Below are positions 41,577 to 60,401 of a stretch of 64,000 bases of DNA, one piece after another. The notes beneath the pieces were generated by a model that made no database searches, was not told the DNA's origin, and saw only the letters and a program-made list of their open reading frames with translations. Source of the stretch: Alloascoidea hylecoeti (lineage: Eukaryota); contig BCKZ01000024.1 of assembly GCA_001600815.1 (NCBI GenBank), positions 1-64,000 on the forward strand, written 5' to 3'. A program made the translations under genes and the position numbers. Within the stretch, counting starts at the first letter, position 1. Each line of letters starts with the position of its first letter.

Positions 41577-43364
41577 TCACAAATCCACTTTATAAATATT
41601 CTTGCGGTGAGTTTCTATCAAGTCTCTACCAATCAATTTATTCCACCATTGATTAGAATAAATAACGGTTAGTTTCCATAAGTTAGCTGGGAAGTCAATG
41701 TACGATCTCAGAATGAATTTAAAAGCTTCTAATGTGTTCTGTAATTCAGCACTAAAATCATCTTTTAATTTGTCTGTTAGAGATCGGTCGTCGTCTGTTA
41801 AGCTTTCCGCCTCCTCGAATACTTCATCATCGTAATCCTCGTATTCATCATACTCTTCAGTCGAATGGTCTGATGTTCCATCCAAATTGCTAAACCGTGA
41901 TTCCTTTTCTTCATCCAATTGTGTGGCATAAATATCAGAGGTTAATTGTTTCCTGAAATTTTCGATAGAATTTATCGACTTTGATAACCGATCGAATGTA
42001 TTAATCAGCCCAACTAATTCAATACGGTTGATCGAAATCTCTTCGTCGTCTTCGAAAAGAATTTTCAAAGCTGTTCCGTAACCTAAAGTTTGAACTTTCC
42101 CCCACATTCTACATCTATCACAAGCAACACAGTCCATAATAGCACTAACATTTCTGAAGCGTAATCTGAACTCATCTTTCAATGCAACACCTTCCGAATC
42201 AGAAAACAACAAATCCTCATTAAAATGTGGTTGATTAGGTGTATCCATTTCATTGACCATTTTTAATAACTGACGACGAGTATCTTGGTCATTACCAGCA
42301 TTTTGAGAACAAAATACTATATCACCGATGTGATCTCGCAATTTTAAAATAGCTCTTGAAACCAAAGCATAATTAAAATAGATATTTGACAGTCTATCAG
42401 GAAAGTTACCAACCCTTGTCATGAAACATTTCATATTTGGCCCCCATTCTCTTGCCATGGGATCAAACCACTCATTACATAAATGTGTAGAAATGGAGGC
42501 ATGCATTCCCGATATAATTCTATAGAATACTCTTTTTTCAAGACACTGTCCAGCTTCTTCATTCATTAAATCTCGTTTCCTATCTCCAATATCTAAACCT
42601 TGTTTCATTTTTTCATTTTTACTGAAATCATCTAAAACACTTCTTAAAGGTCTTGCGGCTTCTGGTACCTGAACATTCCATTTTTCTCTAAAACAGTTTT
42701 CCTGATAAATGGCCCCCCAAACTTGAAATGATTGATTTCCTCCGTATCCAGTGAAACGCTCAGGATTATCTGGTAACGAGACATAAACACCCGGAGCTTC
42801 CAAAGAAAAATCCTCTGGTAGGCAGTAATCTTTATCTGGGTCTTCTTGAGAAGGATCCAACTCATCATCAAGACAAGACGATTCTGTGTTATCATCAAGA
42901 TCTAAAACATGGGATTCTTTAAATTGGTTCTTCTTCTTTTGATATATAGAATTATCAGCGAAATTACCGAGACTTTCATTTCTTATTGATTCCGGTAGGT
43001 CATCGATGTTTTGAACAGAACAACCTTCAGAGAAACACATACCATTATTTTCAAAAAATGGACATTCCCTTCCGTACAGGTCGACCTTAAAGTACTTAAA
43101 ATAGTCTGTATTTATAAGCTCCTTTAATAATGGCCGAACTTTCCGATTTGTTTCTTGAAGACCACCAAAAGTCTGGTCGCATGAGTCTTCTACAATTAGA
43201 GAATCCATGGAGGCGAAGTTGGGATCGCTATAAGACAGTGCTGATTCTGGCGTCACATCTACGCCTGGTGCATTGAATATGTTATCGAAATTATTAGAAG
43301 CATTTGAGATAGAGGAAAAGAATGCTAATACAGTGGCAATTGTACTAACAGATGGCGATTTCAT
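41577..43364 (-). CDS. ERO1: ER oxidoreductin
   Basis: Signal peptide; CPF...C, NPERFTGY, SGMHASISTHLC and CVACDRCRMWGK motifs. Confidence 0.96.
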   Translation of the reverse strand: MKSPSVSTIATVLAFFSSISNASNNFDNIFNAPGVDVTPESALSYSDPNFASMDSLIVEDSCDQTFGGLQETNRKVRPLLKELINTDYFKYFKVDLYGRECPFFENNGMCFSEGCSVQNIDDLPESIRNESLGNFADNSIYQKKKNQFKESHVLDLDDNTESSCLDDELDPSQEDPDKDYCLPEDFSLEAPGVYVSLPDNPERFTGYGGNQSFQVWGAIYQENCFREKWNVQVPEAARPLRSVLDDFSKNEKMKQGLDIGDRKRDLMNEEAGQCLEKRVFYRIISGMHASISTHLCNEWFDPMAREWGPNMKCFMTRVGNFPDRLSNIYFNYALVSRAILKLRDHIGDIVFCSQNAGNDQDTRRQLLKMVNEMDTPNQPHFNEDLLFSDSEGVALKDEFRLRFRNVSAIMDCVACDRCRMWGKVQTLGYGTALKILFEDDEEISINRIELVGLINTFDRLSKSINSIENFRKQLTSDIYATQLDEEKESRFSNLDGTSDHSTEEYDEYEDYDDEVFEEAESLTDDDRSLTDKLKDDFSAELQNTLEAFKFILRSYIDFPANLWKLTVIYSNQWWNKLIGRDLIETHRKNIYKVDL

Positions 43365-46351: not shown

Positions 46352-48037
46352 ATGAATAGGGACAAATTCCTATCTCGTTCAGACATTGAACACCTCATCT
46401 CTCAAGGCCATATAATCGTCATATACAATGAATGGGCCATTAAAATGGATAATTGGGTTAAAAATCACCCTGGTGGTGATACAGCCGTCTATCATCTCGT
46501 TGGAAGAGATGCTACTGATGAAATGAACGCATACCACTCGGACGAAACGGTAAGTGCTTTCAAGAAATGGAGAATTGGAACGGTCGAAAAGAAATGGATT
46601 AATTTCCAACCTCCAATTCGTGGCGGTAAGTTCAGAAGCTACGAAGAGCAAAAGAAAGAGGAAAAATCTTGTTTGGTATCTGCTGACAGCCCAAATGGAT
46701 TGAGCTCTTCAAGTTCGGTATCAAGTATATCCGAGCCCGATGAATCTCGAGCAAACGATATAAAAATTGATCTTCAACAAAGACTATTAGTTGACGAACA
46801 TGGGATCGCCGTTAAAACAGAAAAAATCACACCAATTGAAATTGCAAAAGTCCACAAAAGTCCACAACAAGTTATTGACGATTATGATAACGCTCTTGTT
46901 GAATATGATTATAAGACTTTGCCATCAGTTGATTATGATACTCAAAAGTTAATTTCCGATAAGTATAGAGAGCTTCATGAGGAAGTTAAGAGGCGAGGCT
47001 TTTACAAATGTAATTACTGGGCCTATTTCCGGGAACTGTGTAGAATCTCTTCTCTTTTTATGTATTCAGCGGTGTTTCTCAAACTTGGTTATATCACACT
47101 TAGTGCATTTTTTATGGGATGTGCTTGGCAACAAATGACATTTATTGCACACGATGCTGGCCACGTTGCTATTACACACAACTATCAGTTTGATAATCTC
47201 TTTGGAATACTTATTGCCGACTTTTTTGGTGGATTAAGTGTTGGCTGGTGGAAAAGGAATCACAACGTTCATCACATAATTACAAATGACCCCGTTAATG
47301 ATCCAGATATTCAACATCTACCTTTTTTTGCTGTTAGCACAAAACTTTTTGGGGACGTTTACTCTACTTATTATGAAAAGGTGTTAAAATATGATGCACT
47401 AGCAAAATTTTTGATACCGATCCAAAACTACACATACTATCCTATTTTATGTTTTGGACGTTTCAATTTGTATAGACTTTCATGGCAGCACATCTTACAA
47501 GGTCTTGGGCCTCGTCATGGAAAGGCAGCGTGGTTTAGATATTGGGAATTTGTTGGACTTAGCTTTTTCTTTTACTGGTACTTTTACCTTTTGATGTTCA
47601 CATGTCTTGATAACTGGAGAGACAGATTTGTTCATTTAATGGTTAGCCATATAACAACTATGGTAGTTCATGTCCAGATCACGTTGTCACATTTTGCAAT
47701 GTCTACGTCCGAACTTGGAGAACAAGAATCATTCCCGCAAAGGCAAAGTCGAACCACTATGGATGTTGATTGCCCCGAATGGTTTGACTATATTCATGGG
47801 GGATTACAATTTCAGTTGATACATCATTACTTCCCGAGAGTTCCACGCCACAATTTGAGAGCCTTGCAACCACTTTTGGAAGACTTTTGTAAGGAAGTTG
47901 GACTTCATTACTCAATATACAAGTTTGTTAAGGGCAACAAGATTGTTATTGGCAAACTAGGAGAGATTGGACAGCAGGCTAAGGTGCTTGCCGAATGTAC
48001 GAAGTTTATGGGAAAAGAAGGTATTTCGTACTTTTAG
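46352..48037 (+). CDS. SLD1: Sphingolipid delta-8 desaturase (cytochrome b5 fusion)
   Basis: HPGG plus HDAGH, HNVHH and QLIHH boxes. Confidence 0.9.
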   Translation: MNRDKFLSRSDIEHLISQGHIIVIYNEWAIKMDNWVKNHPGGDTAVYHLVGRDATDEMNAYHSDETVSAFKKWRIGTVEKKWINFQPPIRGGKFRSYEEQKKEEKSCLVSADSPNGLSSSSSVSSISEPDESRANDIKIDLQQRLLVDEHGIAVKTEKITPIEIAKVHKSPQQVIDDYDNALVEYDYKTLPSVDYDTQKLISDKYRELHEEVKRRGFYKCNYWAYFRELCRISSLFMYSAVFLKLGYITLSAFFMGCAWQQMTFIAHDAGHVAITHNYQFDNLFGILIADFFGGLSVGWWKRNHNVHHIITNDPVNDPDIQHLPFFAVSTKLFGDVYSTYYEKVLKYDALAKFLIPIQNYTYYPILCFGRFNLYRLSWQHILQGLGPRHGKAAWFRYWEFVGLSFFFYWYFYLLMFTCLDNWRDRFVHLMVSHITTMVVHVQITLSHFAMSTSELGEQESFPQRQSRTTMDVDCPEWFDYIHGGLQFQLIHHYFPRVPRHNLRALQPLLEDFCKEVGLHYSIYKFVKGNKIVIGKLGEIGQQAKVLAECTKFMGKEGISYF

Positions 48038-48200
48038 ATATATAGATCTAGATGGCGTCGGGTATAATGTTAATCATGGGACAATTGAAACGCCACCAAT
48101 TTTAATATTAAACGTAAATAAGTATATAAATATTAATGAATATGGTGATTTTTCTACCTCCCCTCCTTGTGAACATTTCCGTGGAGATTTAGATATTGAT

Positions 48201-49160
48201 ATGAATTCATTATATCCAGAACGTTCAAACTCTTTCTCTTTTTCTTTGTTGTCTGCTTTTAGGTTCAATCCAGAGTCAGCCAAATCCGAAGAGGAACAGT
48301 TCAAATTTAAAAATTCCCATGCGCATGCATTCATCAATTATAAGAATACTCGTTCCCTTTCTACTCCAACAACACACATAGTTTCAGATTCTATTTACGC
48401 TGGGTTTGCTAGCAATTCACATAACATGCGTCCCAGACTATTCAAGACATTTTCACACTCCCTGGAGTCCACGAAACAAGAAGATTCAAATCTAACAGAT
48501 ATCAATAACCTCCTTGAAGACCCCCCTCTAGACCCCATCGTCTTAAAGGGATACTCTTCCCTTACAAAGTACAAATTAATGTCAACAGAACTGGCAGATG
48601 ATTTGCGGAATCTTCTACCAACAAGAATGCAACTATATGGAGGTTGGCGACTTGTTTATAGTCTTGAACAGCATGGAGCCTCCTTAAGAACTCTTTATGA
48701 TAATTGTACGCCTCCACAAGGAGAGAATCCAGGATACATTATAGCAATAGAAGATCAACAAGGAAATATATTTGGTGCTTACTCTAACGTTCCACCACAC
48801 CCCACATACACAGCGCGATTCACAGGTAATGGAAGCTGCTTTGTATGGAAGACCAAATTAGTGAATACACACCGACACCAACATGAAAGCGACACAATTG
48901 AGTGCCCTACTCAGAAGCTACCAAAACATTTACAATTCAAAGCTTTCCCGCATACAGGTATAAACGCAGGAATACTTTATTGTACCCAAACTTCCCTCGC
49001 CATGGGCGTGTCAGGTGGCCATTATGCATTAATGATAGACGGCAATTTGGAAAAAGGGCAATCATTCCCCACTGAGACATTTGGCAACGAAGGTTTAAGT
49101 GACGCTGGGAATAGATTCAATATAGTGGGTGTCGAAGTGTGGAGAGTTGGAAAAGATTAA
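48201..49160 (+). CDS. OXR1: Oxidation resistance protein (TLDc domain)
   Basis: WRLVYSLEQHGASLRTLY, GNGSCFVWK, TFGNEGLS and VEVWRVG motifs. First ATG at 48201. Confidence 0.9.
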   Translation: MNSLYPERSNSFSFSLLSAFRFNPESAKSEEEQFKFKNSHAHAFINYKNTRSLSTPTTHIVSDSIYAGFASNSHNMRPRLFKTFSHSLESTKQEDSNLTDINNLLEDPPLDPIVLKGYSSLTKYKLMSTELADDLRNLLPTRMQLYGGWRLVYSLEQHGASLRTLYDNCTPPQGENPGYIIAIEDQQGNIFGAYSNVPPHPTYTARFTGNGSCFVWKTKLVNTHRHQHESDTIECPTQKLPKHLQFKAFPHTGINAGILYCTQTSLAMGVSGGHYALMIDGNLEKGQSFPTETFGNEGLSDAGNRFNIVGVEVWRVGKD

Positions 49161-52076: not shown

Positions 52077-52380
52077 TTCCAATAACCATTTCCTGTGCCG
52101 ATAGTTGAAAAATTGTACCTAAGATGGAGAGGGTAACAAAGTGGAATATTGGAGATTTTAACGAATTATAAAAATTTAAGAGTTATAAACTTATTCTTTC
52201 CATTAATTTAAGTTACAAATAAATAGAAATATAAAAGTTATATTGATACATTCCATAACTATTTAAATGACTAGATTTGATGATCTATATACTTGTTTAA
52301 ACATGCTCTATTAAATGGGCCAAACATTGATAACCTACTGTTCTTAAATATAAATAAAAATTAATAATGTTATCTTTTAC

Positions 52381-53246
52381 TTAATCGGACTAGAAATAAT
52401 AGTAAAGTTAGTAAATTTCAGAAATGAAACCACTTTCAAAATAATAATAATTGCAAGTTACCTTTACTGGTGCTACTTCTTTGTTATCGACGCTAAAAAG
52501 AAAAAAGAAAGAAAACAGTTAGTACAATTCACCGGATTATAAAATCTCAATTATAAAAAAATAACATACTAATTATGTTTGACGAATCTAAAGCCTTGAC
52601 CTAATTGGGCACATTCATTGATAAAATGACATCCTAATAGTAAATAATTCTTTGGACGAATTGCAAGACTATATGAAATCCCACGGGTTAATAAAATCTT
52701 TAACCAAAAAATAAAGGAGACGACGATATCTCAATTGTAAAAAAACATACGAGTATTTCATAAATACCAATGAATAAACGATCAATGACCCTGTCATTGG
52801 ACCTGAGATAAGAGATGGATCTTTCTTAAGATCTAAGATGGCAGCTACTGGAATTCCAAAATTTGACACAGGACCTAGTGGAAATGAAAGATAATATTAG
52901 ACATCAAGATTATTTCCTGATATAATCACAAGATTATTGTATTTATTTTGTAAACTTACCCCAGAAATGTGTAGTGCACATATCTATTATTATTTGTCAT
53001 ATTAGCTAAACTTTCAATCTTATATTAGAAAAATGTCTCGCTTACACCTAGATAGATAATAATTAGTTTGAGGAGTTTTTTTATAATCAAGGAATAATAT
53101 ATCAATTGACAAGATTAAATAAATCCAGTAAAAATATCTCTTTGAGCAACGGTTAAATATAAAGTAACAAGAACTTACTTTAAAAAGTCTTTGGAGAATA
53201 TAAAGCTTGAAGCTTTGCTAAATGCACTAGTTGCGGCGCCGGTCAT
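52381..53246 (-). CDS. MPC1: Mitochondrial pyruvate carrier 1; exons 53246-53179, 53047-53046, 52983-52960, 52874-52751, 52668-52570, 52492-52462, 52389-52381
   Basis: Spliced protein ...[31 protein letters not shown]...PKNYLLLGCHFINE...VKSD*. All six introns are GT-AG with branch-like motifs. The last intron is less certain. Confidence 0.9.
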
Positions 53247-54082
53247 TTTTATGGATATACTGTAGAATAAAACAAATAAAGGTTTTCTTTGAGAAGTTTT
53301 ATAAAAGGTGATGGTATGCTCTATGAGACTTAGAAAAAGATGACAAGGAGCACATAACCGTAAGTTTAGAGTGAAAGTTACGGGTACTGCACTTTCTCGT
53401 TGAAAATGAAATTTGCGGGGATAACGAGGATTCACTGTTATATAAATGCGATCTTTCAGCTACTCAAATTGTCTTATGATTAAAGCAGGAAATTAAAGAA
53501 TTTCTGATCAACTATAATATCATGTTTTAGGTTATATAAATCGCGCATTTTTTGTTTTCTTTTAAAAGTGATATTTAAAATTAAAATATCTAAATTACAA
53601 AGCTTTATTTCTATTATCAGTTCATGAGGATAAATACTAATTATTGAAATGAATAAACATATTGATACTATTGAGATTCAATCTATACCTATAATTGATA
53701 TCATTTTATATATCTATATAAACAATATATAGCCAATGCATATACTTAACTACTGGATTCGACCTTAATGGAAATTCCATTCGATTTAATCAACTTAGGC
53801 TTTAATGTTTTTCAATTTCAACAGGACGTTTCCGTTAGCCATTCAGAAAGGTCGCACGAACATAATCAATATATTGATTCATTAACTGTATACGAGGTTA
53901 TAAGTAAAAATGCAAGAGGGTGTCATGAAGAACACCAATTGAAGTAAACGCCAAAACATCTACCCAACTTTTTTAATAAGTGTCGATTTCAATTAAAAAT
54001 AATGACAAAGGTAAAGAGAAAGAAGAAGACAGATGAAGGTTAACATAAAAATTAACATGAAAATTAATATTAATATTAAGAG

Positions 54083-54155
54083 TAAGATGGAGATGGAGAT
54101 AAAGATAAAGATGAAGATGAAGATGAAGATGAAGATAAAGATGAAGATGAAGATA
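54083..54155. repeat. (GATGAA/GATGGA/GATAAA)n hexamer tandem repeat
   Basis: Read directly from the sequence; it generates the spurious LHLHLH ORF. Confidence 0.8.
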
Positions 54156-54379
54156 TAGCAGTGTATGCGAGCATAAGGTTATGAATGTAGAAATCATAGC
54201 TCGGTTAAAGAATATTATATGCAATAAAATGTCAAATTTCAAGATCTGCGGCGTAGATAATACAGATACAAATAATCTATTGTACACCATATTAATTTTC
54301 TTGAATGTGAAGAGGAGTCCCTAGGATATAATGATAAATGGTTAAAGGATCGGGGAAATTTTGGGGAATAGGTGATGCA

Positions 54380-57310: not shown

Positions 57311-59820
57311 ATGTCTACAACAATCGCAAAGCCTTCATCAAGGAGGCAATCTACTAAAATGAAGATATCACAGCAAATCAGTACCGGTGATCAGATCCAG
57401 ACTGCATTGGGCCAAGTATTTCAGGAAGCGCAACGAGGTTTAGCTGGTCATAGGAAACATGTCGTTGTTTTAAAAGCGATCCAACAAAGAGCTTTTGAGT
57501 TAGGATTTGAGGATCAATTTAATCTTTCATTTTGTCATTTGATTAATAAAGTATTGGTGATTAAAAAATCACAAATAGTTGGTGATAGAATTGTTAAATT
57601 ATGTGCTTCTTTTTTTGGTGCAATTAATTCAAAAGATACTGATGAAAATGCCATGAAAGATGATGATGAAGAAGAAGAAGATACCCTAACGTCTCGATTT
57701 TGCACATATGTTGTTCGTCATCTAATTAGAGGAATCGAAGCAAAGGATAAAAATATTCGTTATAGAGTCTGTCAATTGTTAGCTGTACTTATCAACAATT
57801 TAGGGGAAATTGACGATGAATTATATCAAACATTATTATATGCTTTAAATAAAAGAATTCATGATAAGGAACCTACAGTTCGTGTTCAAGCAGTTTTATC
57901 AATCTCAAGATTTCAAGAAGATGACAGTACTGATGGTAATAATGGAATAAGTGATGCTACTGGTAGATTAATAACTGTTATTCAAAATGATAATAGTGCA
58001 GAGGTTAGAAGAACAGCATTATTAAATCTTCAAAGATCTAAACAAACATTACCTTATTTACTTGAACGTTGTAGGGATGAAAATTCAATTAATCGAAAAT
58101 TAGTTTTTACAAAAGTTATTCCACAAATTGGTGATTTTAGATATCTTTCTCTTGATAAACGTGAAAAATTATTAGGTTATGGTCTTAGAGATCGTGAAGA
58201 ATCTGTTAGAAATGCAGCTACTCAAATGTTTAGTCATTCATGGATTGAAAATGTTGGAAATGATTTAATTGAATTATTAGAACGTTTAGATGTAATGAAT
58301 AGTACAATTGCACCATCAGCAATGTCTATTTTCTTTGCCAATCGACCAGATACAGTATCAAAGGTTAATTTCCCTTCTGAATTATGGGCTTCACTTACAA
58401 CGGAAACTGCATTTCTTGCTCGTACATTTTATGAACATTGTGTTAAGAAGGAAATGGATGAAACGATAGATAATAATTTCCCAGAAGCTTCTAAATTAGC
58501 ATCATATTTAAAAGGTTATCTTAATCAAAAGAAAGAAATTGAGGATAATGGTGAAGATACAACAGAATTAGATTTCATATTGGAACAACTTCTTACAATT
58601 GCAAAAGAGTATGATTTTAGTGATGAAATTGGTCGTCGATTGTTTTTACAAGTACTTCGAGATTCTTTAGTTTCTGATAATTTATCTGAAAAGATAATTG
58701 ATTTATCTCTACAAATTATTAGAAAATTAGCTATCAATGAAACTGATTACAGTCAATTAATTGTTGAAGTTATATCTGATGTAAAAGATGCAATGACAGA
58801 AGAAGGAGATGAAGTTGATGAAGCTTTCCATTTAGCAATTTCAAATAATGAAGTTGAAAATGAAAATGAAAATGAGAATGAGAATGATATAAAAAGAAAA
58901 AGAAAAACATTAACACCTGAAGATGAAGGGAAAAAAAATATATTACATCATTCAATTATTATAAAATGTTTAACAATAATGAAGAGTTTACTTGAAAATT
59001 TAGAAGATAAAATTTCTGGTAATCCTCCAATTCTTATGCTTCTTGATACAATGGTTAGACCAGCAGTTCGAAGTCATGATTCTGAAATTAGAGAACATGG
59101 TCTAAGATGTTTAGGTTTATGCAGTTTATTAGATCAAGAATTAGCAACAGAAACTCTTTATCTTTTTGGTGTATGTGTTACTAAAGGTCATGAATCTTTA
59201 AGAGTTGAAGCATTAAAAATTATATCTGATATTTTAAGTATTCATGGTAGGAAAGTTCTTGATGTTGAAGGAGGTGTTGATTCTTTAAGTTTATATAAAC
59301 TTTATTATAGAGCACTTCGAAATGCTGAAATGCCAATGGCTCAATCTGCTGCTGCTGAAGGATTATGTAAATTATATCTTGCAGATGTAATGACAGATCA
59401 AGATTTATTTGAAACATTAATTCTTACTTATTTTAATCCTTCTTCAACTGATAATTTTGCATTGGTTCAAGCATTAAGTTTTTGTATTCCAGTTTATAGT
59501 TTTTCACATATTTCTCATCAAGAGAAAGTTGGTTTGGTAAGTATTATTTTTCAAATTTTTACTTTTGTTAATATTTTACTAACAATATTAGGTATTTTGT
59601 GATGCATTTGAACGTCTTTTTGATGTATATGAAAGTCTTGATGATCCAACTGAAATGACAGCACCAGCACAAGTTATTCAACAATTAGTTTTTTGGACTG
59701 ATCCAGAGAAAGTTGTTGGAATTACAAAAGATGAATATGAAAAATCACCAATTCAAGCTAATATTGCAATTGAAATTTTACAAAGGGCAACTGATTCTGA
59801 CTCTAGTAAGTAATTTTACT

Positions 59821-59851
<31 letters not shown>

Positions 59852-60278
59852 CATTTTAACTAACGATATTATGTTAAATTTAGAAACAAAAAAGAAAATT
59901 CTTATATCTGCTCTTAGTAAACTTCGAATTGGTAAACGTATTGATGTTGAAGTTTTAAAAGAACTTAATGAATCTGTTCAACGTTCTATTGAGGGTAAAA
60001 TTGCTGAAGATGCACTTTCTAGAAATTCATTAGTGAAATTTGAAACTGTTACTAAAGGAATCTTAGAAGCTGGTTTATTAGAGCAAAAAAGAAATGATGA
60101 AAGTGATCATGATGAAGATTTAGATACAGATAATCATGATCAACAGGATAAAGAGGATCAAGAAGATCAAGAAGATCAAGAGGATCAAGAGGATCAAGAA
60201 AAGGATGTTGCAAATGACATATCTAAACAAAATGTCAATGAACAGGATGAGATAGAGGATGATGATGAAGGTTTATAA
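57311..60278 (+). CDS. YCG1: Condensin HEAT subunit; exons 57311-59536, 59592-59805, 59884-60278
   Basis: AGHRKHVVVL, AKDKNIRYRVCQ, DNSAEVRR and AEGLCKLYL motifs; two GTAAGT...TAG introns keep the frame. Confidence 0.93.
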
Positions 60279-60401
60279 ATAGTTTAAGATTACAGTAATC
60301 ATGTTATGTTATAGTAATAAAATTATACTTAAATTTATGTATATCAATACTACATGATTGTTTATTTAAATTTTTAGAATGATGAGATAATATAAAAAGA
60401 T

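Follow-up and report, generated by a model that had tools for sequence, protein, structure and literature searches.

The MPC1 gene, which encodes subunit 1 of the mitochondrial pyruvate carrier (PF03650) and lies on the minus strand at about 52380-53246 of the window (the whole 64-kb stretch of DNA analysed in this study), very probably contains an exon of only 2 nt. This exon, GT, would be constitutive and flanked by two canonical U2-type introns of 131 and 62 nt that are removed one after the other, an interpretation that we hold with high confidence. The presence of the GT in the mRNA, the sequential removal of the two introns and the order of their removal are what we infer from the sequence. 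The host is an isolated, AT-rich budding-yeast lineage.

The Pfam MPC profile matched the open reading frame of exon 4 (E 7.2e-14, 52.3 bits) and that of exon 5 (E 1.1e-9, 38.9 bits), both above the curated cut-off of 27. A homologue search with the frame of exon 4 as query returned 91 relatives, nearly all of them yeast MPC1 proteins, and exon 4 shared 83-95% identity with 21 yeast MPC1 proteins. Translation of exon 1 gives the conserved N-terminal motif of yeast MPC1, F-x-F-S-K-D-F-[LV]-K, with the Lys at its end. Because this motif of the family is encoded in frame with an ATG, exon 1 is certainly the true first exon. When the GT is kept, the joined coding sequence amounts to 357 nt, a multiple of three, and encodes 118 residues. 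This model was 68-79% identical to the best 25 of its 91 matches, most of these alignments starting at residue 4-7. In 52 of the 91 matches the alignment reaches residue 12 of the model or an earlier one and therefore spans the junction, and 27 of these 52 do so without gaps. The Pfam matches to exons 4 and 5, the N-terminal motif and this level of identity bear out the assignment to MPC1 that had been made in a preliminary description of this DNA, and all the positions and landmarks that it gave for exon 1, the GT, the branch points and the splice sites match the minus strand. The C-terminal end of the gene model (Table 1) is less certain.

Table 1: Exon-intron model of MPC1, in the order of transcription (positions in the window).
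Feature	Positions	Strand	Length (nt)	Description
Exon 1, coding part	53179..53246	-	68	ATG at 53246; ends ...TTA AA, phase 2
Intron 1a	53048..53178	-	131	donor GTAAGT; branch-like AACTAAT; acceptor CTAG
Micro-exon GT	53046..53047	-	2	G as third Lys codon base, T as first Tyr codon base
Intron 1b	52984..53045	-	62	donor GTAAGC; branch-like GCTAAT; acceptor ATAG; phase 1 inside the Tyr codon
Exon 3	52960..52983	-	24	AT ATG TGC ... TGG G, then GTAAGT; encodes the THFWG motif
Intron 2	52875..52959	-	85	GTAAGT ... TCTAAT ... CTAG
Exon 4	52751..52874	-	124	MPC domain core
Intron 3	52669..52750	-	82	GTATGT ... ATTAAC ... ATAG
Exon 5	52570..52668	-	99	MPC domain, second part
Intron 4	52493..52569	-	77	GTATGT ... 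TACTAAC ... TTAG
Exon 6 (tentative)	52462..52492	-	31	
Intron 5 (tentative)	52390..52461	-	72	GTAACT ... TACTAAC ... CTAG
Exon 7 (tentative)	52381..52389	-		TCC GAT TAA, end of the coding sequence

If intron 4 is left unspliced, the frame stops at a TAG that spans its donor. With six introns in less than 900 nt, MPC1 is unusually intron-dense compared with its surroundings. In the 64-kb window, 23 of the 25 listed reading frames of at least 250 residues are single long ORFs, the exceptions among these 25 being the gene of a condensin subunit, with introns near its 3' end, and an overlapping pair of frames at 46352-49160. Several other long frames start with a codon other than ATG, which suggests short 5' exons.

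The case for the micro-exon starts from the phases of its neighbours. Exon 1 ends in phase 2 and exon 3 needs phase 1. Joined directly, the two exons give a frameshift and a stop after about 46 residues, while exon 1, GT and exon 3 together give an open MPC1 frame with Lys-Tyr at the junction; translation thus confirmed what the preliminary description had said of both products. The pattern [KR]-Y-x-x-[ST]-[ST]-HFW was found in 68 of the 74 homologues in which HFW is preceded by at least 12 residues, and the Tyr alone in 71 of them. As exon 1 contributes AA, the next exon AT and the family has [KR]-Y, the missing bases have to be a purine and then T, as they are in GT. All other ways of joining the two exons were enumerated. 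When donors could be GT, GC or AT and acceptors AG or AC, 11 solutions with a single intron keep the frame, all of them with weak or non-canonical sites and all with loss of conserved residues. With GT/GC-AG introns, one internal exon and the outer donor and acceptor fixed, only two solutions are open and in frame, the 2-nt exon and an exon of 92 nt, and the Lys-Tyr spacing of the family is reproduced by the 2-nt exon only. The earlier claim that MPC1 requires a 2-nt micro-exon is therefore upheld at the level of the sequence, as the only layout predicted to give this spacing.

Canonical splice signals directly flank the two bases. On the minus strand, ACTAAT is found at 53067-53062, an acceptor AG ends at 53048, the GT occupies 53047-53046 and GTAAGC starts at 53045, so that the stretch 53051-53040 reads CTAG-GT-GTAAGC. 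Downstream, GCTAAT is found at 53006-53001, ahead of the second acceptor, whose AG ends at 52984. The branch A of intron 1a (about 53063) lies 15 nt before its acceptor and that of intron 1b (about 53002) 18 nt before its acceptor, and each of the two acceptors is the first AG after its own branch site. Introns 1a and 1b thus have a donor, a branch site and an acceptor each, with distances within the 9-26 nt of the other introns checked in the window. Their signals resemble those of the other introns of the gene, all MPC1 introns, these two included, being 62-131 nt long; intron 1b departs somewhat from the local consensus in its donor, GTAAGC, and in its branch site, GCTAAT. The condensin subunit gene provides introns of a second gene for comparison: those at 59537-59591 (55 nt) and 59806-59883 (78 nt) have GTAAGT donors, TACTAAC or AACTAAC branch sites and branch-to-AG distances of 9 and 20 nt, and their splicing keeps the frame open to 944 residues. 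Judged by these signals, the putative introns on both sides of the GT look normal for the host organism.

The chance occurrence of such an arrangement was estimated in two ways. Counted over both strands of the 64-kb window, the motif AGRTGTAAG occurs 2 times where 0.86 would be expected, and the expectation for one strand of a 195-nt stretch is about 0.001. The 195-nt intervening sequence was then shuffled, 100000 times with preservation of mononucleotide and 20000 times of dinucleotide composition. AG-RT-GTA[AT]G appeared in 197 of the 100000 mononucleotide shuffles and in 36 of the 20000 dinucleotide shuffles; together with a branch-like site 5-40 nt upstream it appeared in 21 and 7 of them, respectively. 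The whole layout, including the second branch site before the final acceptor, was obtained in 3 of the 100000 mononucleotide shuffles and in 0 of the 20000 dinucleotide shuffles.

A simple mechanism could produce the proposed mRNA. In fungi with short introns, an intron is defined by the nearest donor and branch/acceptor pair, according to the accessible part of PMC7138796. By such intron definition, one intron would be bounded by the donor at 53178 and the AG at 53048, with its branch site at 53067, and the next by the donor at 53045 and the AG at 52984, with its branch site at 53006; the GT would stay in the mRNA and no special factor would be needed. No more than 2 nt separate the acceptor of intron 1a from the donor of intron 1b, and only about 18 nt lie between this donor and the upstream branch site. 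Binding at neighbouring sites is hindered by very small exons, as described in the accessible text of PMC4674806, and from this hindrance we infer that two spliceosomes would not assemble together on an acceptor and a donor 2 nt apart, so that removal would be sequential. The preliminary description had called for splicing that is ordered or recursive. The sequential part of this claim agrees with the 2-nt spacing, but a fixed order would not be required, because removal of either intron first would leave a normal substrate. The upstream intron would most likely be removed first, because it is transcribed first. Once it is gone, GTAAGC would directly follow the GT, much as in a recursive splice site with an offset of 2 nt. 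Two routes could lead to a frameshifted product, either skipping of the micro-exon or use of the abutting poor donor GTGTAA. Folding of the RNA at 52960-53200 gave a z of +1.10, with 175 of 200 shuffles at least as good, and no structure that would enforce an order or present or hide sites was seen in this region.

Other explanations of the same sequence have to be weighed against the 2-nt exon. The frameshift on direct joining of exon 1 to exon 3 would also be expected of a broken gene, be it a pseudogene with a recent loss of 2 nt at the exon border or an assembly error, with AG-GT-GTAAGC being coincidental, and a second, intact copy of MPC1 is conceivable, the sequence examined being the 64-kb window. 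This sits badly with the other MPC1 exons, which are all intact and highly conserved, and it needs a coincidence that was met in about 0.2% (motif) or at most 0.003% (full two-intron layout) of the shuffles; moreover, reasoning from the sequence, no single-base homopolymer error restores the K-Y spacing. We consider a broken gene very unlikely. The mature mRNA would be identical if the whole stretch left in one reaction whose non-canonical 5' cut was shifted 2 nt downstream from the GTAAGT donor, in which case the mRNA would carry the GT of 53178-53177. Since GT also opens the intron that follows exon 1, the mature junction looks the same with these bases as with 53047-53046, and in the accessible part of a lariat-sequencing study (PMC4712674) only intron products are described as separating one-step from multi-step removal. 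An intron cut in this way would start with AA, which is no known donor type, and the internal arrangement of acceptor, GT and donor with its own branch site would be left unexplained, making such a cut extremely improbable.

The only other open in-frame GT/GC-AG solution, an internal exon of 92 nt (53137-53046, minus strand) after a first intron of 41 nt, shares the GTAAGC donor and has TTAAC 15 nt before its acceptor. As the main or an alternative form it would place a 30-residue hydrophobic insert between Lys-Tyr and Tyr-Met-Cys. An insert of such a size is present in 0 of the 74 homologues with enough N-terminal sequence, the sole extra stretch there being 4 residues in P0058 that look like an upstream acceptor; the 41-nt intron would be shorter than all eight introns examined (55-131 nt), and the composition of the insert is that of a translated AT-rich spacer. 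We regard this exon as highly improbable: the 92-nt stretch within intron 1a probably owes its open frame to chance, and it could give a minor isoform. Another proposal, made in the preliminary description, is compatible with the 2-nt exon and adds regulation to it. The micro-exon would act as a switch of pyruvate import, skipping (53178 to 52984) or the use of GTGTAA as a zero-length recursive donor leading to a decay-prone mRNA and less import. The frameshift and early stop predicted on skipping hold, and the sequence would chemically allow either skipping route, but nothing around the site speaks for regulation: no conserved element or RNA structure was seen there (the fold z given above), and GTGTAA is a far poorer donor than GTAAGC. 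A regulated switch thus appears unlikely.

If the constitutive 2-nt exon is accepted, its two introns seem to differ in age. The 62-nt intron 1b, which interrupts the Tyr codon in phase 1, seems to occupy an old position common to Lipomyces, as judged from the indirect but concordant evidence of public protein models. In the Lipomyces model P0069, exactly 8 residues (24 nt) are missing between R+W and PVSNFG, with a Trp instead, and this gap fits a skipped exon with the same borders as exon 3. In the models P0040, P0043 and P0058 (Lipomyces kononenkoae) Asp replaces Tyr, as expected from read-through of an acceptor AG-AT, and several other MPC1 models begin at a Met or Val just after the Tyr. 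Because the position of intron 1b seems old, the 131-nt intron 1a looks added, and it is probably the younger one, inserted 2 nt upstream of intron 1b. The borders of intron 1a form a GT direct repeat, so that a drawing of the insertion may take either GT to be the exon. For the comparison of MPC1 intron positions among relatives that had been suggested earlier, a metagenome scan covered 80 loci of 149 relatives, and none of those loci showed the same gene structure. There, an intron in this region was found in 0 of the 18 yeast loci (L001-L018), which all read straight through, and the 62 other fungal loci all have an intron inside the His codon, at a different position. The prokaryote genome contigs scanned contained no relative. 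An origin of introns 1a and 1b from an intron family or from introners was rejected, as no further copy of either was found in the 64-kb window. With confidence somewhat above even, we propose that an ancient intron acquired a new neighbour, an intron of 131 nt inserted 2 nt upstream of it, the GT repeat supplying both the donor and the stranded exon, and that the compact, consensus-driven yeast spliceosome would now need two successive rounds to remove them, which would make this the first described exon of 3 nt or less in Saccharomycotina. Among the open-access papers searched, on micro-exons in budding yeasts and on recursive or nested splicing in yeasts, we found no report of such an exon from this group.

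The first 23-26 bases after GTATG of introns 3 and 4 (52725-52750 and 52544-52569, minus strand) are near-identical, with one gap and one mismatch. This 5' likeness might point to the copying of one from the other; the shuffle p is about 0.007, but this pair is one of 28, and with correction for that number the likeness fails to convince. Public MPC1 models from early-branching yeasts are mis-joined or truncated around the Tyr and the THFWG exon in P0004, P0058, P0069 and P0070 (Myxozyma, Lipomyces) and, at the same place, in P0006, P0011, P0012, P0014, P0051, P0074 and P0079. This suggests that short exons in the Tyr/THFWG region of MPC1 defeat gene predictors in several species.

Several neighbouring loci of the window deserve mention. 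The ERO1 protein (41577-43364, minus strand) has at most 45% identity to its named relatives (43-45% to Lipomyces, 40% to Nadsonia, with Geotrichum among the nearest), and filamentous ascomycetes score almost as high, which points to sparse sampling of the lineage in public protein sets. In the gene of the condensin subunit (Cnd3 domain) at 57311-60400 (plus strand), two short introns lie near the 3' end, the second of them with an uninterrupted run of about 29 T. Just upstream of MPC1, on its promoter side, 54015-54180 is a long imperfect short-period repeat with several open frames (LHLHLH, KMKMKM, DEDEDE). The frames of a cytochrome b5-fatty acid desaturase (46352-48037) and of a TLDc-domain protein (47967-49160), both on the plus strand, overlap by about 70 nt, suggesting that an intron or a start site of the second gene has gone unrecognised.

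If the mRNA confirms the 2-nt exon, a budding-yeast spliceosome constitutively keeps an exon of two bases between short introns, and a phenomenon of intron-rich fungi and plants would extend to the main model group for the mechanism of splicing. The gene would be a concrete example of how a couple of exon bases can be left stranded when an intron is gained beside an existing one. It would also explain the failure of automatic gene models at MPC1 and would make phase mismatches a useful flag for annotation pipelines. Finally, it would offer a natural and genetically tractable substrate for asking how the spliceosome handles a 5' or 3' exon of two bases and whether occasional skipping tunes the output of MPC1.

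The arrangement had been described as reminiscent of fungal spliceosomal twin introns (stwintrons), and this likeness did not survive closer comparison. In a stwintron, as defined in the accessible part of PMC7138796, an internal intron lies inside the donor, branch or acceptor element of an external intron. We rejected this class for MPC1: GTAAGT, AACTAAT, TAG, GTAAGC, GCTAAT and TAG are all contiguous, neither intron interrupting an element of the other, and the upstream intron ends 2 nt before the downstream donor hexamer. With stwintrons, including those of Lipomyces, as far as they are described in the accessible texts (PMC7138796, PMC5639578), the proposed MPC1 layout shares two U2-type introns in one stretch, consecutive reactions, reliance on intron definition and, possibly, an origin by duplication of a donor GT; it differs in the six uninterrupted elements and in that either order of removal would work. 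In the Lipomyces stwintron paper, as accessible, the pyruvate carrier is mentioned 0 times.

Recursive splicing at zero-length exons was likewise rejected as a class for MPC1, as the abutting GTGTAA would give a frameshift and the in-frame donor lies 2 nt further on. Nor would the layout be a device for the removal of a long intron, because its introns are short (131 and 62 nt). A recursive substrate is said to have been engineered in S. cerevisiae by Lopez and Seraphin in 2000, a study to which PMC4712674 and a preprint (10.1101/224170) refer. For BOT1 of Cryptococcus neoformans, the accessible part of this preprint reports natural recursive splicing at an exon of zero length. Like such splicing in Drosophila, vertebrates and BOT1, to the extent that the available text describes it, the MPC1 layout has an acceptor followed by a donor, would need two consecutive reactions and would have a donor at the end of the joined exon. 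Those recursive systems keep no base, and their mRNA equals the product of one step, whereas MPC1 would keep 2 nt that are essential for the frame.

The closest parallels are other ultra-short exons. The accessible part of PMC4674806 describes a constitutive exon of one nucleotide in APC11 of Arabidopsis that was verified by reporter constructs. On this account, it shares with the MPC1 exon a presumed constitutive inclusion at a size far below that thought to be needed for recognition and the fact of having been missed by annotation; it differs in being in a plant gene, in its length of 1 nt and in its reporter verification, the MPC1 exon having been read from the sequence. In fungi, a long-read annotation of Coprinopsis cinerea (PMC12230235, in the part accessible) lists exons of 1-3 nt, among them 57 exons of 2 nt in 50 genes, and CYP621A of Fusarium (PMC12940212, likewise) has a 1-nt exon of the form AG-G-GT, which its authors favour as a cryptic exon that rescued a lost base. 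As these reports present them, the Coprinopsis and Fusarium exons and the putative MPC1 exon are alike in being ultra-short, in lying between canonical introns, in having been spotted by a phase misfit, in their place within a conserved motif, and in that their omission breaks the frame. In contrast to MPC1, which is known from its sequence, the former belong to intron-rich filamentous or mushroom-forming fungi and are supported by RNA, and the MPC1 evidence points to an intron added beside an old one, versus the rescue of a lost base favoured for Fusarium. Exons of 2 nt are already known in fungi; the putative MPC1 exon would be notable mainly for its occurrence in a budding yeast, together with a hint at how such an exon can originate.
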